Below, piece by piece: positions 2,391 to 59,960 of a stretch of DNA of 64,000 nt; within the stretch, counting starts at the first letter, position 1, and every line of letters begins with the position of its first letter. The notes below the pieces were generated by a model, which was not told the origin of the DNA, did not search any database, and saw nothing but the letters and a program-made list of their open reading frames with translations. The stretch comes from an uncultured Rhodospirillaceae bacterium (lineage in GTDB: Bacteria; Pseudomonadota; Alphaproteobacteria; GCA-2731375), in NCBI GenBank assembly GCA_964631725.1, contig CAZVYX010000016.1:36773-100772 (forward strand), given 5' to 3'. The position numbers and the translations under genes are program-made.

Positions 2391-5300
2391 ATGCGCATTC
2401 TATCCATTGTCATCATCATGCTTACGGCGCCATTGCTGTCATTGCAGCCGGCGCTGGCCGCCGGTGGACCCGAGAAACCCAGGCACGTCGAGTTCAGACC
2501 GACCCCCCCGGCGCCGCGGTCCCAATTGCCCGACCAGGCAATGCGCAAGAGCGCCGGCTGCGTTTCGTGCCACACCAAGGTCGACTCGCTGTCGATGCAC
2601 GAAAGCCCCGGCGTCATCCTGGGCTGCACCGATTGCCACGGCGGCAATGCCAACGTTTTCAAGAAGGACTTCGCCACTTACGTGACCGCGAAGCTGGATG
2701 CGCACGTGCAGCCAACCCTGCCGCAAACCTGGGGTCATCCCAGCGCTGCCAATCCGAAGCACAGCTACACGCTGCTGAACCGCGAGGCCCCGGAGTACAT
2801 CCGTTTTGTCAATCCCGGTGACCTGCGGGTCGCGCGCGAGGCCTGCGGCAGCTGCCATCTGCCGATCATCCAGGCCTCCGAACGCAGCCTGATGTCGACG
2901 GGCGCCATGCTGTGGGGCGGCGCCGCATACAACAACAACATCCTGCCGTTCAAGCGCTATATTCTGGGCGAGGGCTATACCCGCGAGGGCGAGGCGGCGG
3001 CGCTGGTCAACCCGGTGGCCCCGGATGCCAAGCTGACCGCGCGCGGCGTGCTGCCGCAGCTATATCCGCTGCCAGCCTGGGAGACAATTCCGCCGGGCGA
3101 CATCTTCCGGGTGTTCGAGCGCGGCGGCCGGAACATCCTTAATCTGTTCCCGGAGATTGGCTTGCCCAATGCCGCCGGCCAGTTGCAGCGGCTGGAAGAG
3201 CCGGGACGCCCGGATATCCGGCAGTCGAACCGCGGCCCCGGTACCGGCCTTAGGATCGCCGTGCCGGTCATCAATATCACCAAGACCCGGCTGAACGACC
3301 CTTTTCTCTGGTTCCTCGGCACCAATGATGGGCCGGGCGACTACCGCTCGTCCGGCTGTTCGGCCTGCCATGTGGTCTACGCCAATGACCGCGACCCGCG
3401 GCACTCCGGTCCGTATGCAAAGTTCGGCCATACCGGCAAGTCGCAGAGCGTCGATCCGACGATTCCGAAGAACGAGGAAGGCCATCCGCTCAAGCATAGC
3501 TTCTCGAACGCCATTCCGACCAGCCAGTGCATGATCTGCCACATGCACCAGCCGAATGTGTTCGTGAACACCTACCTCGGCTACACGATGTGGGATTACG
3601 AATCGGACGCCCCCTTCATGTGGCCGGAAAAGCAGCGCTACCCGACAGCCGCGGAGATGCATAAGATTCTCAGCCGCAACCCGGAGGAGGCGTCGATACG
3701 TGGCAAATGGGGCGACGTCGAATTCCTCAAGGAGGTCAGCAAGCTCAATCCGAAACTGAAGAACACTCAGTTTGCCGACTATCACGGCCATGGCTGGAAC
3801 TTCCGCGCTATCTTCAAGAAGAACCGCAAGGGCGACCTGCTGGATGCCGAGGGCAAGACCGTGGAACCGGACGACCCCGACAAGTTCAAGAAGGCGGTGC
3901 ACATGTCGTCGATCCATCTCGATGTCGGCATGCATTGCGTCGACTGCCATTTCTCACAGGACTCTCATGGCAGCGGACATATCTATGGTGAGGTGCAGGC
4001 GGCGATCGAGATCCGTTGTATTGACTGCCACGGCACCCCGAAAAAGGCGCCGACGCTTCTGACCAGTGGGCCGGCGGCGCCGCCCAACGGCCACGATCTG
4101 GAGCTGCTGCGCACCCCGGATGGACGAAAGCGTTTTAAATGGCGCGGCACCCAATGCGACCGGCCCCTCGAAGAGGCGCGTGACTGCAAGCTCTATCAAC
4201 GCGCCTCGCTCGATCCGGACCTGGAGTGGGAGGTCAGCCTGCTGCGCGACATCGTCGACCCGAAGCACACCGCATTTAACGCCAAGGCGGCGCGCGCCAA
4301 ATTGATGTCCAGCGATCCGCTGGGCCTGAAATGGGGCCCTGGAGTTGATCCCAAGGATCTGGCGCACAAAAGCGACAGCGAATTCGAGTGCTTTACCTGC
4401 CACACGGCCTGGACAACCTCCTGCGCCGGATGTCACCTGCCGATCCAAGCAAATTGGAAGACGGAGCGACATCACTATGAGGGCGGTGAGACCCGCAACT
4501 TCGCTACCTACAACCCGCAGGTGGTGCGCGATCAAATGTTCCAGATCGGCATTCACGGCAGCGTCAAGAACAAGACCATCGCGCCGGTGCGTTCGTCGTC
4601 GGCGCTTATTCTATCATCGCAGAACATCAACCGCGAGCGTATCTACGTTTCGCAGCCGCCGATCGCCGCCAGCGGCTATTCCAGCCAGGCCTTCGCGCCG
4701 CACTTTGCGCACACGGTACGCAAGACGGAAACCAAGACCTGCACCGACTGCCATTTGTCCAAGGAGAACGACAATAACGCGATCATGGCGCAACTGCTGC
4801 TGCATGGCACGAATTTCGTGAATTTCGTTGGGCCGTTTCAGTGGGTCGGCGAAGCCGGTGGCATCGAAGGCGTGAAGGTGGCAGAATTCGATGAGCCACA
4901 GGCGGTGATCGGCAGCTACCTGCACCGCCATGCCTTTCCCGATTGGTACCAAGCCCATCAGGACCGTGGTCAGCAGCTGGAGACCGCGCACGGCCATCGC
5001 GGTGATGAAAGCCGCTGTTTGCAGCACCGTGGCGAGTACCTCTACGTTGCCCAGGGCAAGGACGGAATGCGGGTCTACGATGTCGCCTCGATCGCCAACA
5101 AGGGCATCTCCCAACGTATTATCACCGCGCCATTCTCGCCGTTGGGCCACGACACCCACATCGCCTCGGCCAATGCCACTTGTGTCGTGCTGCCGACCAA
5201 TCAGCCAATTCACCCGGACCGCAACCAGGGTGACCTGATGCGCAAGACCAACGAGGAGCAGCCCTTTCATCCGATCTATGATTACGCTTTCATCACCGAT

Positions 5301-22027: not shown

Positions 22028-24475
22028 TCATAGCCGTGTCGCGCGAAGCCGCAGGGCGTTGGAGATTACCGAGACCGAGCTCAAACTCATCGCCGCCGCC
22101 GCGATGATCGGGCTTAGCAACAGGCCGAAGAACGGATACAACACGCCCGCCGCCAGCGGTACGCCAAGGGCGTTGTAGAAAAAGGCAAAGAAAAGATTTT
22201 GCCGGATGTTTCCCATGGTCGCCCGGCTGATCCGCCGGGCCCGTACGATGCCGTTAAGATCGCCCTTCACCAGGGTGACGCCGGCGCTCTCGATCGCCAC
22301 GTCGGTGCCGGTGCCCATGGCGATGCCGATATCGGCCTGGGCCAAGGCCGGGGCGTCATTGACGCCATCGCCGGCCATCGCCACCACGTGGCCTTCATCC
22401 TGCAGACGGCGTACCGCCGCGCTCTTTTGGTCGGGCAGGACATCGGCGACGATCTCGTCGATATCAAGCTGTTTCGCCACCGCCTCCGCCGTGGTCCGGT
22501 TATCGCCGGTCAGCATCACGATCCGCAGGCCCTCGGCATGCAGGGCCTGTATCGCACCCGGCGTGGTCTCCTTGATGGGGTCGGCCACGGCGATCAGGCC
22601 GGCGGCGGTGCCGTCAATGGCGGCGAACATGGCGGTCGCGCCCTGGCCGCGCAATTCATCCGCCGGCAGAGCAGAAATATCCGCGCCCTGTTTGGCCATC
22701 ATGGCGGCGTTGCCGAATGCCACCGCGCGGCCATTCACATCACCCGCGACGCCCTTGCCGATGGCCGCCTGGAAGCCTGTCGGTTCGGCCAGTTCAATAC
22801 CGCGTGCCTGGGCGCCGGCGACGACCGCCGCCGCCAACGGATGCTCACTGGCCCGCTCCAGGCTGGCGACCATGGCCAGGACTTCGTTCTCCTTGAAGCC
22901 CGGCGCGGCGACCACCTCGGTCAGGGCCGGCTTTCCAAGGGTCAAGGTGCCGGTCTTGTCGACGATCAGCGTATCGACCTTCTCGAAACGCTCAAGCGCC
23001 TCGGCGCTCTTGATCAAGACCCCGGTTTGGGCGGCCCGTCCGGTGCCGACCATGATCGACATCGGCGTCGCCAGGCCCAGGGCACAGGGACAGGCGATGA
23101 TCAGCACCGAGACGGCGGCGAGCAGGCCGTATGCCAGGGGCGGTGTCGGTCCCCAGATAGCCCAGGCAATGAAGGCGGCGACGGCGCAGGAGACCACGGT
23201 GGGGACAAAGTATCCGGCCACGGTATCGGCGATGCGTTGGATCGGCGCCCGGCTGCGTTGCGCCTCCGCCACCATCTGCACGATGCGGGCCAGCATGGTC
23301 TCCGCACCGACCTTGTCGGCGCGCATGACCAATGCGCCGGTGCCGTTGAGGGTGCCACCGATGACGCCATCGCCGCTCAGTTTTTCCACCGGAATGGACT
23401 CGCCGGTAATCATCGATTCATCGACGGCGCTGTGACCGTCGATAATCTCGCCGTCCACCGGAATGCCTTCGCCGGGGCGGACCCGCAACCTATCGCCCAT
23501 ATGCACCTCGGAGAGAGCGATTTCCTCTTCCCCGCCGTCTTCCAGCAGACGCCGCGCCGTCTTCGGCGCCAAGTCCAGCAAGGCGCGCAAGGCGCCGGAA
23601 GTGCGCTCGCGGGCGCGCAGCTCCATGACCTGCCCCAGAAGCACCAGGGTGATGATCACCGCCGCCGCCTCCAGATAAATCGCGACCCGTCCGCCGGCAT
23701 CGCGGAAGCCTTCCGGGAAGACGCCGGGCAGCAACACGGCGATGATGCTGTAGCCATAGGCGGCGCCGGTGCCGATGGCGATCAGCGTGAACATGTTCAG
23801 CTTCATGGTCAGCAGCGATGTCCAGCCGCGCTGGAAGAACGGCCAGCCGGCCCAAAGAACCACCGGGCTGGCCAGGACAAGCTGGACCCAAGGGTTCCAC
23901 CAACCGCCAACAACACTGCTCAGACCCGGTATCATCTCGCCCATGGCCAGGATCAATACCGGCAAGGTTAGCGCGCCGCCGATCCAGAAGCGGTGGGTCA
24001 TGTCGATCAGTTCCGGGTTTGCTTCGGCCTCGACCGTCACTGTCACCGCCTCCAGCGCCATGCCGCAAATCGGGCAATCGCCCGGCGCGTCCTCGACCAC
24101 CTCCGGGTGCATGGGGCAGGTGTACTTGGTCGCCGTGGCGCCGATGACCATGTCGGCCTCCAGCGCCATGCCGCATTCCGGACAGCTGGCCGGCGTGGCG
24201 CTCCACACGCCGGGGCACATGGGACAGATGTAGCCATCCCGATCGGACGTGCCGGTTGATGTGCTCGTTTTTTCGGCGGCTTTGGCGGTGCCGTCGAGAT
24301 AGCCGCTCGGGTCATTCTCGAACTTGGCGGCGCAGCCCGGGCAGCAGAAATGATAGGTCTCGCCCTCATGGGTAACCGTCGGCTTGCCCGCTGACCCATC
24401 AACCGTCATGCCGCAAACAGGGTCGATGGCCGGCTCGACAGTCCGCTCACCGGAAGCCGCTTGAATTTCCGCCAT
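22028..24475 (-). CDS. copA: Copper-translocating P1B-type ATPase with N-terminal TRASH/YHS-like and CPxC heavy-metal-binding domains
   Basis: N-terminal Cys motifs (HFCCPGC; [15 protein letters not shown]; [15 protein letters not shown]). TM CPC motif ([13 protein letters not shown]), DKTGTLT phosphorylation site, [10 protein letters not shown]. Confidence 0.9.
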
Positions 24476-24629
24476 GGTTTACTCCCAGAGCCTATTTCAT
24501 CGAAATGTGCTCAGTTTCTAAAGAATAGAGCAATTGAACCAATCACTTAGGTCGCGTACGCGACACCAACCGATTGAAAATTGCTCTGGCAACAGTTTTC
24601 CAGGCATTCCCACCCAGAACCATCTACTC

Positions 24630-24662
24630 TTAACATGGGGTTTCCAGTCACTGGAATGTCAA
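24630..24662 (-). promoter_or_regulatory. Candidate CueR/MerR-type operator within the copA promoter
   Basis: On the minus strand: -35 TTGACA followed immediately by the perfect dyad TTCCAGTGACTGGAA (half-sites TTCC/GGAA resemble CueR boxes). This arrangement matches MerR-type promoters, where the operator sits between -35 and -10. It lies in the copA-cueR divergent intergenic region. Confidence 0.35.
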
Positions 24663-24766
24663 GGTGGAACTTGCTAAGCTATGCCAAGTAAGCGCCGCAG
24701 CCACGAACCTGCGTTCGGTTGGTGGTGAAAGGCCACTTCGCGCATGGGACCAAGGGAGAACCGGCC

Positions 24767-25189
24767 ATGAATATCGGAGACGCGGCAAAAGCCACGGGTC
24801 TGCCGCCGAAGACCATTCGTTATTACGAGGACATCAAGCTTGTCATCGCCGACCGCTTGGAAAATGGTTATCGCACCTATTCGGATGCCCATATCCACAA
24901 GCTGCGGTTCGTGCAAAGGGCACGCGGTTTGGGTTTCTCGATCGATGATTGCCGGGCCCTGCTGTCCCTTTATGAAGATCGGAACCGGGCCAGCGCGGAG
25001 GTGAAGGGCATCGCCAGGAAACATCTGCGGGACATCGAAGCAAAGATAAGCGAGTTGCAGAATTTGCAGGAGACGTTGTCCCATCTCGTCGCGCATTGTG
25101 CCGGCGATCATCGCCCCGACTGCCCAATCATTGATGATCTTGCCGGGGAATTCCAAGGAATGCCAAGGGATGATGTGAAGCTGCACTGA
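24767..25189 (+). CDS. cueR: MerR-family Cu(I)-responsive transcriptional regulator
   Basis: N-terminal HTH (MNIGDAAKATGLPPKTIRYYE). C-terminal metal-binding Cys pair (CAGDHRPDCP). Divergent from copA. Confidence 0.8.
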   Translation: MNIGDAAKATGLPPKTIRYYEDIKLVIADRLENGYRTYSDAHIHKLRFVQRARGLGFSIDDCRALLSLYEDRNRASAEVKGIARKHLRDIEAKISELQNLQETLSHLVAHCAGDHRPDCPIIDDLAGEFQGMPRDDVKLH

Positions 25190-25294
25190 TCTGCGCCGAA
25201 GATCCAACGGCATAGAGGAGCCCCATGAATATTGGAGGCGCCGCCGATCCAGCGGGTTTGTCAGCAAAGGCCATTTATGTTGCTGGAAAGATTT

Positions 25295-26530
25295 ATGAAG
25301 ATCATTACGAAGATCAGTTCACCGGGCCTTGGATTCCTGGCGAATGTCGGGATCCTCTTGCTAGCGTCATCACCGGCATTTGCGGAGAAGGAGGTCTATC
25401 TACATCAAATCCAGCGGATCGGCGGCGTCGTCATTTCGGCTGCCGATGGCCGTAGTTTTCTGGTTGGCAGCGATTATGGCGCGCTCTCCGTGGCGCCCGA
25501 TGGCCGTGTCACGCGGCTATCCAAGGACGCCGGTTTCCTGACGGAGCTGATTGCCCACCCAAGGCAGACAGATGTCCTGTTCTCCAGCGGGTACCGCTCT
25601 AAGACCGAGAAGCTGGGCGTGATCCGTTCAGACGATGCGGGCAGGACATGGTCGCGGATATCCGATGCCGCCGGGGGACCGGTCGCGTTCCATGCCATGG
25701 CCATCAGCGCCATTGAGCCATCGATCATCTATGGCGCCGGGAAGACTGTGCAAATCAGTCGTGATGGCGGAAAGAACTGGCGCGCCATGGGCCGTCCGCC
25801 GGGACAGATCTATGGCATCGCGCTCTCTACCAAGAATCCGAAGTCCCTATATGCCGCCACCCATGAAGGTTTATTCGGCAGCATGGATGAAGGTGCCACC
25901 TGGACCAGGATCAACCCCGCTACGCGCCCCGCCACGGCGGTTACCATGGCGTCCAACGGCCAAATATATGCTTTCGTCTATGGTATTGGATTGTTGGTTG
26001 GCTCGGAGCCGGGGACCAACTGGAATCTTGTGTCGAAAGATTTTCAGGACCGGGCCCTCGTCAACATTTCCGTGGACACGACCAATCCAACGCGCCTGCT
26101 TGGAGTCGCGGACACCGGTGCCGTCATGCTCAGCCGGGACGGCGGCAAGAATTGGATCAGTTTCGAGGGGCAACTGGACAGAGCGCCCCAACGAATTTCC
26201 GCAGGAGAGGCGCTGTTCAACGATAATTGTCAGGCTTGTCACGGCGCCAAGGGTATTGGCGAGAAGCCCGATGATCCGCGTGCGGTGGACGAAAATGGCT
26301 TTCCCCTGGCCCCCGCCCTGAACGATGATGCCCATGGCTGGCATCATGGGGACGATCAACTCATGGCTACGATATTGAACGGCTCACCACGCAACAAGCG
26401 GATGGCCGCCTGGAAGGACGGGGGTATGACCAGCGAAGATGCGCGAAACCTGGTCGCCTATATAAAGAGCCTTTGGAATTTCCGCAGCCTTGCCTGCCAG
26501 GGCGGACGCCACATGCGCTGCATGCACTGA
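25295..26530 (+). CDS. Secreted BNR/Ycf48-like beta-propeller protein fused to a C-terminal monoheme cytochrome c domain
   Basis: Signal peptide MKIITKISSPGLGFLANVGILLLASSPAFA. Multiple DxGxTW/DGGKNW BNR-type repeats. C-terminal CQACHG heme motif with a downstream Met ligand region. Confidence 0.6.
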   Translation: MKIITKISSPGLGFLANVGILLLASSPAFAEKEVYLHQIQRIGGVVISAADGRSFLVGSDYGALSVAPDGRVTRLSKDAGFLTELIAHPRQTDVLFSSGYRSKTEKLGVIRSDDAGRTWSRISDAAGGPVAFHAMAISAIEPSIIYGAGKTVQISRDGGKNWRAMGRPPGQIYGIALSTKNPKSLYAATHEGLFGSMDEGATWTRINPATRPATAVTMASNGQIYAFVYGIGLLVGSEPGTNWNLVSKDFQDRALVNISVDTTNPTRLLGVADTGAVMLSRDGGKNWISFEGQLDRAPQRISAGEALFNDNCQACHGAKGIGEKPDDPRAVDENGFPLAPALNDDAHGWHHGDDQLMATILNGSPRNKRMAAWKDGGMTSEDARNLVAYIKSLWNFRSLACQGGRHMRCMH

Positions 26531-26589
26531 TAACGTTCTGCTGTTTGCATGTCGGTCTTGGCGTGACCACGAGGAAGGGAACCGCATTC

Positions 26590-27156
26590 ATGCGCGTTCA
26601 AATAAAATCCGTTTCCGACTATCCCTGGTTCATCCGCGCATTCTTTTGGAAACAGAAAAGGAGCTATGGAACGGTTCTTGAGCCAGGCATGCTTTGGGGC
26701 CGATCGCCTTGGGTCTTCGCCACGCTGGCGCTTCTATATGGCGCCTTGAACCGGAAGCGCTCACCACTCGATCCCGTCCTACGCTCTCTCGTTACCGTCC
26801 GTGTTTCCCAGATCAACCACTGCGCCTTCTGCGTCGACATCAATGCCTCGACGCTATTGAAACGCGGTGCCTCGATGGACAAAATCGAGGCCCTACAGAT
26901 TTGGCGCGACAGCAGCCTTTTCAATGATCTGGAGCGTGATGCGCTCGAATATACCGAGGCCATGACCTATTCGGACAGGGACGTAGATGACGAGCTCATT
27001 GCACGACTGAAGTCACATTTCGACGATGATGCCTTGGTTGAGTTGACCGGTCTCATCGCTTTTCAAAACATGTCGAGCAAGTTCAACAGCGCCCTTGATG
27101 TGCCGGCACAAGGCTTTTGTCAGATTCCGGCGCTCGACCAACAGCTACCTAGGTAA
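26590..27156 (+). CDS. Carboxymuconolactone decarboxylase (AhpD-like) family protein
   Basis: CMD-family core with INHCAFCVD and EALQIWRDSSLF. Confidence 0.65.
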   Translation: MRVQIKSVSDYPWFIRAFFWKQKRSYGTVLEPGMLWGRSPWVFATLALLYGALNRKRSPLDPVLRSLVTVRVSQINHCAFCVDINASTLLKRGASMDKIEALQIWRDSSLFNDLERDALEYTEAMTYSDRDVDDELIARLKSHFDDDALVELTGLIAFQNMSSKFNSALDVPAQGFCQIPALDQQLPR

Positions 27157-27225
27157 ATATTCACCGCTTGCGCCGCATCTTGAAGTCCTAGGCCAGTCTG
27201 TCTCGCAAAAATGGAAATTACTGGC

Positions 27226-28773
27226 TTATGGCCGCATGGCGTGGGTTGATGGGCCGGTGGTCCGCAGGGGCGCGACGGTATTGGCGAAGTCACAGAGCAG
27301 GGCACGGGTGTCCCTTGGGTCGATGATTTCCTCGATCCAGAAGGTTTCGGCCGAGCGGAAGGGCGAGCGCAGCTTTTCCAGCCGTTCGGTGATCTTGTCC
27401 AGCTCCGCCTCCGGATCCTCCGACGCGGCGATATCGGCGCTGTAGGCCGCCTCAATCCCGCCCTCCAGGGGCAACGAGCCCCAGCGGCCCGACGGCCAGG
27501 CATAGCGGGTGGTGTAGCGGCCGCCCACTGTATGGGCCGCGCCGGCCACGCCGAAGACATTGCGGATAATCATCGTGCACCAGGGCACCGTGGTCTGCCA
27601 AATGGCGCTCATGGCGCGCACGCCTTCCTTGATGACGCCGCTTTGCTCCGCCTCGAGGCCGACCTGAAAGCCCGGACAGTCGGACAAATTCACCACCGGC
27701 AGGTGGAAGGTCTGCGCCAGGTCGACGAACTTCTCGACCTTGCGGCAGGTATCCGCCGTCCAGCAGCCGCCATAGGACATTGGGTCCGAGGCCATGAAGG
27801 CGACCGGCCAGCCGTCCAGGCGGGCCAGGCCGGTAATCACCGATTTGCCGTAGTCCCGGCCCATCTCGAAGAATGAGCCTTCATCGACCAGCGCCTTGAT
27901 GATCGGGCGCATCTTGTAGATCTTGCGGATGTCCCGGGGAACGGCGTCGATCAGCCAATCCACGCGCCGGTCCGGGTCGTCCTCCCGGACACCTCGTGGG
28001 GGCAGTTCATGGATCGATTGCGGCAGGTAGGAGAGGAACTGCCGGGCGCATTCAAAGGCCTCTTCCTCTGTGTTCACGGCGTGATCGACGGCGCCGGCGC
28101 GTAGCTGGATCTTGTAGCCGCCCAATTCATTCTTGGTCAGTTTCTGGCCAATGCGCTCCACCACCGGCGGGCCGGCGACGAACATCGCCGATTTTTCCTT
28201 CAACATGACCGAATAGTGCGAGGCCGCCAGATGCGCGGCGCCCAGCCCGGCGACCGAGCCCAGGCCCAGCGCTACACGAGGCACCAGGCCCATGTTGGCC
28301 ACCACCAACTCCCAGCCGGCGACACCGGGCACATTGGCGCGGCCCGTGGTCTCGATGGTTTTGACCGAACCGCCGCCGCCCGAACCTTCCACCAGGCGGA
28401 CGAGGGGTATCTGCAAGCCATTCGCCATGGCCTCGGCGTTCAGATGTTTTTCCTTGATGGTGGCGTCGGCCGAGCCGCCGCGCACGGTGAAATCATCGCC
28501 GGCGATAACCACGCGCCGGCCGTTCAGGCGGGCCCGCCCGAATACGAAGTTGGACGGCGTGAAATCTTCCAGATCGTTGCGGCCGTCATATTCAGCCATG
28601 CCGGCGATCTTGCCGATTTCGTGGAACGAGCCGTCATCGGCAAGCAGTTCGATCCGTTCCCGAATTGTGTAACGGCCGCCGTCCTTCTGCCGTTGGACGC
28701 GCATCTCGCCGCCCAGTTTATCGGCGAACGCCTCGCGCCGTTTCAGTTCATCGAGTTCCGGTTGCCATGACAT
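27226..28773 (-). CDS. pccB: Acyl-CoA carboxylase carboxyltransferase subunit (propionyl-CoA carboxylase beta chain-like)
   Basis: Strong similarity pattern to PccB/AccD5 carboxyltransferases along the full length. ATG at 28773 is preceded by GGAGG; the upstream in-frame extension is unlikely. Confidence 0.85.
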   Translation of the reverse strand: MSWQPELDELKRREAFADKLGGEMRVQRQKDGGRYTIRERIELLADDGSFHEIGKIAGMAEYDGRNDLEDFTPSNFVFGRARLNGRRVVIAGDDFTVRGGSADATIKEKHLNAEAMANGLQIPLVRLVEGSGGGGSVKTIETTGRANVPGVAGWELVVANMGLVPRVALGLGSVAGLGAAHLAASHYSVMLKEKSAMFVAGPPVVERIGQKLTKNELGGYKIQLRAGAVDHAVNTEEEAFECARQFLSYLPQSIHELPPRGVREDDPDRRVDWLIDAVPRDIRKIYKMRPIIKALVDEGSFFEMGRDYGKSVITGLARLDGWPVAFMASDPMSYGGCWTADTCRKVEKFVDLAQTFHLPVVNLSDCPGFQVGLEAEQSGVIKEGVRAMSAIWQTTVPWCTMIIRNVFGVAGAAHTVGGRYTTRYAWPSGRWGSLPLEGGIEAAYSADIAASEDPEAELDKITERLEKLRSPFRSAETFWIEEIIDPRDTRALLCDFANTVAPLRTTGPSTHAMRP

Positions 28774-29117
28774 TGGCGGTTTCCTCCAACGGATCGTTTG
28801 TGAAATGTTATCTGTTGTTGCGGCCAAGATACCAGTTCGGGCGCGCCTTGAACGGCGAAATTCCGAACCGGCCGGTGGATCGGAGCAAGTGGCGGCCAGA
28901 AACCCTGGAAAGCCAACTCCATGCGCCTTTGTCTCCCAACGTGGCGGCAAAGTCAAAACCGTGCCCGCCAATCGCCCCCCAAATCGCCCGGTGAGTGGGG
29001 ATTCTTGTTGAATTTGATGGCGATGCAAGTATTCTCGTCGGCAAGGAATAATCCAGCCGCCGGAACGGACGTCTGTTGGCGGCATGGGCAGGTAATGGTT
29101 TTTGAGAGGACAGGTGC

Positions 29118-59246: not shown

Positions 59247-59960
59247 TCAGATCGAAACCGATAGGTCCTGCAGCCATTCGGGGAGAATGTCCAACAGCTG
59301 GCTTTCCAGCCAATGGTCTACCCCGAACAGAATGCCCATGCCCACCAACAAAAACGTGATCCCCAGGATCGTCTTGGCTTTGCCCGCAAGCAGGCGCAGG
59401 GCCCGTTGCCGCTTCGCCACCATTTCGCGGGTTCCAAAGGCCAGCGCCAGCACAACAGTGGACACTCCCAACGCAAACGCTGTCATGATTGCTCCGGCCC
59501 AAATGATATCCTGGCCCTGGGAGGCCAGGGATATGGCACCGCCCAGGGTTGGCCCGATACAAGGCGACCAGACGGCCCCCAACATGGCCCCGCCCAGGAA
59601 CTGCCCACGCAGCCCGGCGCTGTCCATGCCGCGTAGATGGCCATCGGCATTGCCGGCGAAAGCGGCCGTGGCTGTGGCGAAGCGTTCGTTCAGGCGCGGG
59701 ACCAACAGGACCAGGCCAAAGACGACCATCATCCAGGCGCCGATCGTGGTCATCAGCCGCTGATCAAGGCCGATCGAGGATCCCAGCACGATGACGAACA
59801 GGCCAACCAGGACGAAAGACAGGCTCAACCCAGCCGCCAACGCCAGCGGGCCCCGGCGGTCGGCCTGCAGCGAGGCCGCCAGAACGATGGGCAATACGGG
59901 CAATACGCAGGGGTTCAGCAGCGTCAGCAACCCGGCGATGAAAGCGAAAAACAACTCCAC
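59247..59960 (-). CDS. ccdA: Cytochrome c biogenesis / thiol-disulfide electron transporter CcdA (DsbD family)
   Basis: Six TMs with the two conserved Cys (LLNPCVLPVLP and WSPCIGPTLG). Confidence 0.8.
   Translation of the reverse strand: MELFFAFIAGLLTLLNPCVLPVLPIVLAASLQADRRGPLALAAGLSLSFVLVGLFVIVLGSSIGLDQRLMTTIGAWMMVVFGLVLLVPRLNERFATATAAFAGNADGHLRGMDSAGLRGQFLGGAMLGAVWSPCIGPTLGGAISLASQGQDIIWAGAIMTAFALGVSTVVLALAFGTREMVAKRQRALRLLAGKAKTILGITFLLVGMGILFGVDHWLESQLLDILPEWLQDLSVSI

Follow-up and report, generated by a model that had tools for sequence, protein, structure and literature searches.

What might a protein that joins a β-propeller to a cytochrome c be doing beside a copper exporter and its regulator? 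The question is raised by the gene at positions 25,295 to 26,530 of a 64,000-nucleotide (nt) stretch of an uncultured Rhodospirillaceae bacterium (contig CAZVYX010000016.1 of assembly GCA_964631725.1, positions 36,773 to 100,772 of the forward strand), here called the window. To our knowledge, the neutralisation of Cu(I) in the Gram-negative periplasm without oxygen is an unresolved problem; CueO, a multicopper oxidase (MCO), needs O2, and CopG is no more than a proposal. The gene belongs to a family that is real, widespread and uncharacterised, and the encoded protein is probably a haem protein of the periplasm whose function is linked to copper or thiol stress. The initial annotation had described a secreted protein of about 410 amino acids (aa) ending in a class I cytochrome c, placed between cueR and a CMD/AhpD-like gene next to copA, and had not recognised the fusion as a characterised protein. 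All of this was borne out, secretion as a prediction from the sequence. The open reading frame (ORF) covers 25232..26530 on the plus strand and encodes 411 aa from its ATG at 25295; three public metagenome contigs carry a call for this very gene among the same neighbours. The literature and structure searches brought up no paper on the fusion or on what the propeller family does, no characterised homologue, and no solved structure of the protein. The parts of the gene are as follows.

25295..26530, plus strand: propeller-cytochrome c fusion gene (ORF and public gene calls)
25295..25384, plus strand: signal peptide, aa 1-30, with cleavage after …SSPAFA and before EKE (read from the sequence)
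25397..26170, plus strand: six-bladed BNR/Asp-box propeller, aa ~35-292 (NF045728 match and AlphaFold2 model)
26186..26470, plus strand: class I monohaem cytochrome c domain, aa 298-392 (PF13442, PF00034)
26471..26530, plus strand: C-terminal tail SLWNFRSLAC401QGGRH406M407RC409M410H and stop codon (alignment conservation)

The cytochrome domain is recognised over cut-off by PF13442 (Cytochrome_CBB3; aa 300-390, 2.3e-13, 50.7 bits, cut-off 27) and by PF00034 (8.4e-11, 43.5 bits, cut-off 21.3). Profile and motifs place it among the class I c-type cytochromes, in which haem would be attached at a single CxxCH motif, C312-Q-A-C315-H316 (26228-26242). In an alignment of 30 homologues, on which the conservation of residues given here is based, C312, C315, H316, and M370 are invariant, and Met370 (26402-26404) is the probable axial ligand. 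Equally invariant is an AHGWHH motif (A-H347-G-W349-H350-H351, aa 346-351; 26330-26347). The nearest solved sequences are CcoP-type cytochromes; HxWHH appears in none of the displayed PDB alignments, and none of the listed PDB matches reaches the tail. Assignment to the cbb3 subunit CcoP itself (TIGR00782) was rejected at 29 bits against 179.95, with one haem motif where CcoP is dihaem.

The tail is 83% identical on average to that of the window protein, compared with 64% for the cytochrome domain and 45% for the propeller, and it is found in 56 of the 59 genome loci examined. C401, Q402, G403, and C409 are invariant, while R405, H406, M407, and M410 are at least 90% conserved, giving the consensus SLWxFRSLA-C401-Q-G-x-R-H406-M407-x-C409-M410. 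The mature protein has four cysteines only, two in the haem motif (312 and 315) and two in the tail (401 and 409), and the tail is a candidate Cu(I) or redox-active dithiol site. Its spacings are C401-x4-H406-x3-M410 and C401-x7-C409, within a surrounding fold that is not a cupredoxin. The former resembles the ligand loop of azurin and the latter the digonal Cu(I) loop of CueR; both resemblances serve as a lead only.

The N-terminus, MKIITKISSPGLGFLANVGILLLASSPAFA followed by EK, reads by eye as a Sec-like signal with an AxA cleavage site. It is weakly conserved (21% identity), and helix 11-24 has a low predicted local distance difference test score (pLDDT) in the AlphaFold2 model. Built from a 30-sequence alignment, this model (pLDDT 87.2, predicted template modelling score 0.81) comprises the signal helix, 24 strands at aa 42-290, and a cytochrome domain made of helices at 298-392, after which the tail forms two more, both short. 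In the model the 24 strands make up six four-stranded blades, with pLDDT above 90 over the propeller. The sequence carries four canonical Asp-boxes (SxDxGxxW at aa 112, 155, 196, and 280) and two degenerate ones, instead of the six to seven BNR repeats first counted. Pfam propeller signals lie at aa ~103-290, with Sortilin-Vps10 (1e-10) and BNR both over cut-off. The invariant propeller columns are the structural Ser, Gly, and Trp of the Asp-boxes, together with a small number of Gly, Phe, Leu, Arg, and Thr; none of them is acidic, His, or Cys.

The family is broad. A word-indexed search found at least 387 relatives, the best 120 of which have nearly all the ~400-aa fusion architecture and carry either no name or names such as 'c-type cytochrome' and 'PSII stability/assembly factor-like'. 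A scan of one genome per species gave 165 relatives, mostly from metagenome-assembled genomes (MAGs) of marine Alphaproteobacteria (Rhodospirillales, Kiloniellales, Rhodobacterales). Cultured carriers are Aliiroseovarius salicola, Ruegeria intermedia, and Pseudoruegeria aquimaris, and some relatives belong to the Gammaproteobacteria or to Accumulibacter. A profile search of 1.84 billion representatives yielded at least 20 clusters (50% identity) of full-length fusions; it was flooded by giant multi-BNR proteins, with 8341 matches at 1e-30. The best family match of the propeller is NF045728 (F510_1955; aa 38-227, 4.1e-32), at 111.4 bits against a curated cut-off of 175. The window propeller is a divergent, His-less relative of the F510_1955 family and not an equivalog.

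The missing histidines define a subtype. A five-histidine signature (HxHG/(T/S)H/SGHP/DFH), derived here from the alignments and not a published definition, is present as an all-or-none set in 62-70 of 113 aligned full-length fused homologues. At four of these positions the window protein has R41, G43, D60, and Y100, and only H133 (DFH) is kept; together with its ~40 nearest relatives, it shows R/Q, G/N, D/P, and Y at the first four. All five histidines are found in each of the five full-length stand-alone propellers aligned (two Sinorhizobium plasmids, Alkalihalophilus, Rhodococcus, and Gloeocapsa), as well as in the separately translated Azospirillum propeller; a sixth aligned propeller, from Aestuarium, is truncated N-terminally. 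In model and alignment the signature histidines belong to blades 1-3, where each opens strand A or closes strand B, and by ordinary propeller topology they would share one face near the axis. The five may form a metal site that was lost in the subtype of the window. The His-less subtype is the richer in metal markers, which accompany it at 14 of 39 loci, compared with 3 of 20 where the protein is of the His-type. Other arrangements of the domains also occur. The cytochrome and tail exist as a stand-alone unit of ~115-135 aa in Sedimenticola, and loci L063-L066 (Sedimenticola and a gammaproteobacterial MAG) encode such stand-alone cytochromes with AHAWHH and an ACQGPRHMSCM C-terminus. A Thiobacillus HxWHH cytochrome is without the Cys tail, and a truncated-propeller version lies between DUF4399 and CcdA in L059.

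Much can be learned from the split form of the protein. By tblastn, the propeller occurs alone on 145 plasmids, and all eight plasmid contexts inspected are metal-resistance regions, from the Pseudomonadota, Bacillota, Actinomycetota, and Cyanobacteriota (among them loci L083, L085-L088, L094, and L095). Their gene orders are given below.

Sinorhizobium pSinB: P-type ATPase, DsbE, TlpA, SCO, propeller, DsbA, CcdA … CusA
S. meliloti: CusA, cytochrome c, DsbE, TlpA, propeller, DsbA, CcdA
Aestuarium: two copper oxidases, propeller, DUF411/CopG, cytochrome c, P-type ATPase, lnt, lspA
Alkalihalophilus: ResA-ResB-CcsB-CcdA-propeller, cupredoxin
Rhodococcus: DUF305, P-type ATPase, propeller
Gloeocapsa: merF, heavy-metal regulators, propeller, VTT, MCO
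Azospirillum: DUF305, DUF2933, ICMT, propeller, cytochrome c, P-type ATPase, CopB, MCO
Streptomyces: DUF305, propeller, four-helix copper-binding protein, metal regulators

A separate cytochrome c lies next to or near the propeller in four of the eight plasmids. Three, adjacent to the propeller or at most a few kb from it, were translated, and all of them carry HxWHH: those of Aestuarium (AUJ65965), Azospirillum oryzae (WP_246458227), and S. meliloti (WP_088202815), themselves uncharacterised, read CxSCHG … PAPPHDxxGHTWHH(P/S)D … DMP(A/S)FG … FIKS(T/S)WPE (YIKSTWPE in Aestuarium). With the window domain they share CxxCHG, P-A-P-P/L-x-D-x-x-H-x-W-H-H-x-D, the M-P-A-F/W region of the axial Met, and (Y/F)IKSxW; unlike the window protein, they are small, are encoded by separate genes, and have no ACQGxRHMxCM tail. 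These motifs place the plasmid cytochromes in the same subfamily as the window domain, and the window gene is therefore the fused, 'Rosetta stone' form of a conserved two-gene module of F510_1955-type propeller and HxWHH cytochrome c. The stand-alone F510_1955 propellers of Azospirillum and Sinorhizobium are 34-38% identical to the window propeller and share with it a signal peptide, size, blade pattern, and metal-island contexts; they differ in being separate from the cytochrome c and in keeping the five histidines, whereas the window protein is fused and has lost HxHG, TH, and SGHP. The original 'GH74' naming of F510_1955 was an InterProScan inference only (PMC3948429), and the names 'F510_1955 family glycosylhydrolase' and 'exo-alpha-sialidase' are probably wrong. 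On the plasmids and elsewhere, the lipoprotein-maturation genes lgt, lnt, and lspA recur within copper islands (lnt and lspA in L084, lgt with ICMT in L089), as do genes resembling isoprenylcysteine carboxyl-methyltransferase (ICMT; L083/L086/L094, L089), in the company of DUF2933 and VTT/TVP38 membrane proteins.

The fused homologues were then placed in their genomic context by a census, in which ORFs were called and clustered at 57 full-length loci and, with two loci having public calls, 59 loci in all were searched with marker proteins. ORF calling was crude in the high-GC DNA and antisense ORFs were filtered by G+C content at third codon positions, so the counts are approximate; many contigs are short, and 'no marker' partly means missing flanks.

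Metal markers, 17 of 59 loci: CopA at 9 (within ~8 kb), CueR/MerR-like regulators at 9
Thiol and cytochrome c maturation markers, 15 of 59 loci: CcdA at 10, DsbE/TlpA at 13, CcmFHI at 4
Electron-transfer partners, 21 of 59 loci: a 143-155-aa cytochrome with HH…HHW motifs at 17, a YncE-like propeller at 10
None of these markers, 31 of 59 loci

We estimate that by chance CopA would presumably be met at under one of the 59 loci. In a Pfam scan of 254 neighbouring ORFs, cytochrome c, DsbD_TM, YNCE, MerR, response regulators, and Redoxin rank at or near the top and Sel1 is frequent, followed by a long tail of unrelated families.

Three examples with proper gene calls follow. In L091, whose fusion protein is 65% identical to that of the window, copA, cueR, a gene for an anchored cytochrome c, a gene for a 78-aa Cys4 protein, and the fusion gene are co-directional, with gaps of 12-37 nt. 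This copA is preceded by a MerR-type box, TTGACC-TTCCAGTAACTAGAAGCCT-TATATG (3225-3265; 19-bp spacer), nearly identical to the one in the window, and the fusion gene thus stands downstream of copA-cueR behind a MerR-type promoter. In L093, CopA, VTT, and ICMT lie on the opposite strand, followed by DUF2933-Redoxin-CcmF-CcmH-CcmI-fusion gene-CcdA-cytochrome c-YncE-ScsC-cytochrome c. In the His-type locus L089, the order is CopA-cupredoxin-DUF2933-ICMT-LGT-Rieske-TlpA-CcdA-x-cytochrome c-YncE-cytochrome c-fusion gene-VTT. The anchored cytochrome of L091 (6253-6720) and its homologues at 17 of the 59 loci form a second uncharacterised cytochrome c family beside the fusion gene; in the L091 copy an N-terminal hydrophobic stretch reads as a membrane anchor, and the motifs are PGHHAD … HHWRFGNMPPQP. 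This cytochrome is probably a redox partner of the fusion protein. The 78-aa protein (L091:6733-6969) is zinc-ribbon-like, with two CPxC-type pairs (CPDC … CPMC) and no signal peptide. The CcmF-CcmH-CcmI set, with its own DsbE/Redoxin (L093:6494-9834), lies directly upstream of the fusion gene in L020-L022 and L093, whereas in L047 some 2 kb separate the two; a haem lyase dedicated to copper stress is one possible role for it.

In the window itself the copper island is small, consisting of copA, cueR, the fusion gene, and the CMD gene.

22028..24475, minus strand: copA, P1B-type ATPase for Cu(I) export, with a YHS domain at its N-terminus and two HMBD domains (ORF)
24625..24664, minus strand: MerR/CueR-type promoter-operator facing copA, TTGACA followed directly by the perfect palindrome TTCCAGTgACTGGAA
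24767..25189, plus strand: cueR, Cu(I)-responsive MerR-family regulator of 140 aa (TIGR02044, ORF, and the L001 gene call)
26590..27156, plus strand: CMD/AhpD-like gene, co-directional, 59 nt 3' of the fusion gene (PF02627, 4e-15)
24500..27500, no strand: low-GC stretch (53-59%) over cueR, the fusion gene, and CMD, with copA and the flanks at 64-68% (composition profile)

The Pfam domains of copA, determined on the identical gene in L001, are YHS, HMBD, E1-E2_ATPase, and Hydrolase. The regulator passes the CueR equivalog cut-off (TIGR02044, 167.5 bits against 147.4), fails those of MerR, ZntR, and CadR, and has the C-x7-C loop C-AGDHRPD-C; a longer start at a TTG (24719) is an alternative. The dyad TTCCAGTcACTGGAA at 24642-24656 abuts the minus-strand TTGACA, its inverted repeat was confirmed, and it is the only match to a MerR-type dyad in the window, where 0.07 would be expected by chance. 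The -10 element is weak, and the box is a putative promoter-operator for copA. The cueR, fusion, and CMD genes point the same way and are spaced 105 and 59 nt apart; no second CueR-type dyad or convincing promoter upstream of the fusion gene and no terminator after cueR were found in the window sequence. The three genes are probably read as one transcript from the divergent operator region, and owing to their common dip in GC they may have been acquired together as one unit, separately from copA.

The CMD protein has an HCAFC (CxxC) motif and no signal peptide, and its best NCBIfam match, NF053654 ('YciW-related (seleno)protein', 2.2e-41), is under cut-off. It is predicted to be a cytoplasmic CxxC protein; an ScsA-like identity was not confirmed from the literature. 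A CMD gene recurs (58% identity) ~470 nt downstream of a distant, 37%-identical fusion homologue in a gammaproteobacterial MAG (L054:3472-4005), and given this recurrence the pairing may be functional. The wider surroundings hold Type II secretion genes upstream and cbtBA with cobalamin genes downstream. A tblastn search of the 64-kb window with a query for MCOs returned none; it did not extend to Cus genes. Long ORFs antisense to or overlapping copA and the fusion gene (22199-23971, 22206-23435, and 25635-26321, all on the plus strand) were rejected as genes, being the usual high-GC artefacts. A carboxyltransferase ORF (27226-29085, minus strand) would encode 619 aa from its first ATG; public calls use an internal Met (515 aa, 27226-28773), and the 5' extension is probably untranslated.

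How could these parts work together? The simplest model is a copper site beside the haem, because the Cys2/His/Met2 tail, the importers of reductant, the copper exporters and regulators, and the extra cytochromes would all find a place in it. Cu(I) exported by CopA would be captured at the Cys/His/Met tail, with CcdA/TlpA/ScsC-type systems keeping the tail thiols reduced. The haem c beside it would take an electron, converting Cu(I) to Cu(II), and would pass it to membrane-anchored cytochromes and from there to a terminal oxidase or denitrification enzyme; the whole would do the work of CueO without depending on O2. Such a transfer from Cu(I) to haem is within reach of the potentials of His/Met class I cytochromes. 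The reverse reaction, a reduction of Cu(II) for the assembly of cuproenzymes, is equally allowed and would suit the nos, SCO1, and COX1 neighbours in L090 and L091. Redox handling of copper in the cell envelope, whichever its direction, has by our reckoning a little less than an even chance of being the function, and Cu(I) oxidation in particular is a doubtful proposition. Domain architecture, motif conservation, and genomic association are what the analysis shows; attachment of haem, binding of copper, the direction in which electrons flow, and expression dependent on copper are inferred. Bolder still, and unlikely as it stands, is the idea of the module as an unrecognised haem-dependent, O2-independent envelope copper oxidoreductase, in which the propeller of His-type members would bear a five-His copper centre and the Cys2/His/Met site of the tail would be wired to haem c in all fused forms, and which would detoxify Cu(I) in low-oxygen habitats where CueO fails. 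The isolate names of several of the closest relatives (SI072/SI074, BS150m) may indicate oxygen-poor water columns, a guess from the names.

Several observations weigh against a copper role. Confidence in the model is low over the tail (pLDDT 55-76). The window protein is without four of the five family histidines, the obvious metal site of the propeller. The copA gene of the window runs away from cueR, the fusion gene, and CMD on the other strand, and the CueR-type operator faces copA and not the fusion gene, for which reason the sequence does not imply copper induction of this copy. More than half of the census loci are marker-free, in L090 the gene is flanked on one side by nirS/haem d1 genes and on the other by a NOR-like cluster with COX1/SCO1, and the tail-bearing cytochromes of Sedimenticola lie in a plain cluster with cytochrome c' and two other c-type cytochromes. 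The copper-stress link suggested by the initial annotation is thus upheld in part. The L091 operon, the nine CopA loci, the Cop/Scs/Ccm clusters, and the plasmid islands speak for it, and copper and thiol clusters do recur around homologues, yet the association is not universal; comparative support for a copper role is substantial within those bounds.

Two other readings are serious rivals, each held to be improbable at about the same level. The protein could be a Scs-like thiol/disulfide protector of the envelope, with a redox-active C401/C409 dithiol serviced by CcdA/TlpA/ScsC. It would then help to sustain the maturation of cytochrome c, or the function of periplasmic cysteines, when copper is in excess; the propeller would be a platform for clients and copper not a substrate. 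CcdA directly adjoins the gene in L013, L020-L022, L032, L044, and L059, CcmF-CcmH-CcmI precede it in L020-L022, and ScsC is found in the same operon. On Sinorhizobium plasmids, propeller-only relatives are flanked by DsbE/TlpA/SCO on one side and DsbA/CcdA on the other, the one of Alkalihalophilus follows ResA-ResB-CcsB-CcdA, the downstream protein of the window has a CxxC motif, and cytochrome c assembly is a periplasmic target that is blocked by copper (PMC4600104). However, CcdA and DsbE may serve only the maturation of the several c-type cytochromes in these clusters, a pure thiol-disulfide exchanger needs no haem domain, and the conserved His and Met inside the C-x7-C loop look more like metal ligands. 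Moreover, tblastn with marker queries found no CcdA/TlpA near the fusion gene in the window; the nearest CcdA/DsbD_TM-like gene (59307-59942, minus strand), 29% identical to the cluster CcdA, is 33 kb off and outside the locus. Alternatively, the protein might be an ordinary periplasmic electron carrier or donor of respiratory chains, serving denitrification enzymes or the cbb3 oxidase, with copA and cueR nearby only by accident. The marker-free loci, the setting of L090, and the Sedimenticola cytochromes would suit such a carrier, as would a cytochrome domain of CcoP-type resemblance and the nosDFYL-apbE genes 2.5 kb from the fusion gene in L091. It leaves unexplained, however, the propeller, the invariant Cys/His/Met tail, the co-location of propeller and copper genes across phyla, and the copA-cueR operon of L091.

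Two further readings carry much less weight. That another soft metal or metalloid (Hg, Ag, Au, As) takes the place of copper, with the C-x7-C tail as a thiophilic site, is distinctly improbable. Some relatives do adjoin MerR-like regulators that score best as MerR (L055), and propeller-only relatives occur near merF, alkylmercury lyase, and ars genes on Gloeocapsa and Streptomyces plasmids; against this, the window regulator is of the CueR type by its profile scores, and the recurrent partners are YHS/HMBD CopA-type ATPases, MCOs, CopB, cupredoxin, DUF411/CopG, and ScsC. Least probable of all, to the point of being negligible, is a glycoside hydrolase, a sialidase, or an assembly factor like Ycf48, with the cytochrome domain as a mere appendage, as the database names and the fold similarity to GH74 and Ycf48 propellers might suggest. 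Foldseek against the PDB returns only generic Asp-box propellers (GH74, Ycf48, 3b7f), with template modelling (TM) scores of 0.42-0.55 and ~15% identity. For GH74, the TM score is 0.43-0.48 at 14-18% identity, and a single six-bladed domain stands against the two seven-bladed domains of GH74; no RIP motif of sialidases occurs in the sequence, the propeller holds no invariant acidic, His, or Cys residue, and a Pfam scan of neighbouring ORFs shows no carbohydrate genes. Ycf48/HCF136 shares the Asp-box propeller and is the best sequence match with a solved structure (1.4e-6; TM ~0.42 normalised by the query, 0.53-0.55 by Ycf48 length). The Ycf48-like label given at first is nevertheless not retained, with PF14870 at 22.6 bits against 27, NF010237 at 21.8 against 326, and six blades against seven; the window offers no photosystem context either.

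Comparison with known systems places the proposed copper role more exactly. It would equal that of CueO/PcoA, namely the periplasmic oxidation of CopA-exported Cu(I) under CueR control; these MCOs need O2, whereas the fusion has no cupredoxin domains and would pass its electrons to cytochromes. NosZ, with its CuZ domain, and thiocyanate dehydrogenase are propeller copper enzymes that pass electrons to cytochrome c. Propeller enzymes with His-ligated copper that work with a c-type cytochrome are a precedent (PMC5744179), which could apply to the His-type members of the family. For the window protein, which lacks the His set and has neither enzyme among its top 50 fold matches, it is an analogy only. 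The periplasmic CopG (DUF411) has been proposed to oxidise Cu(I) and to interconvert Cu(I) and Cu(II), and to matter without O2 (PMC7558416). It resembles the fusion in its Cys/Met copper ligands and its association with copA, cus, and MCO genes, and on the Aestuarium plasmid its gene lies between propeller and cytochrome c; it differs in having a thioredoxin-like fold with a CxCC Cu4 cluster and no haem, without kinship in sequence or fold. With ScsABCD (suppressor of copper sensitivity), which draws on ScsB/CcdA-type import of reductant, the likeness is one of company, since in L093 the fusion gene shares an operon with ScsC, CcdA, and a redoxin of TlpA type, and of the copper stress on periplasmic thiols; the fusion is homologous to no Scs protein and carries haem and propeller instead.

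The fusion is thus a concrete candidate for the O2-independent handling of Cu(I): a predicted haem protein whose Cys/His/Met site is invariant and whose gene is linked to copA/cueR, to ScsC and CcdA, and to dedicated genes for the maturation of cytochrome c. Additionally, a widespread propeller family named as hydrolase or sialidase keeps company with metal genes in eight plasmids from four phyla, and its His signature suggests a metal site. The fused form also shows which cytochrome is the partner of the F510_1955 propeller family.

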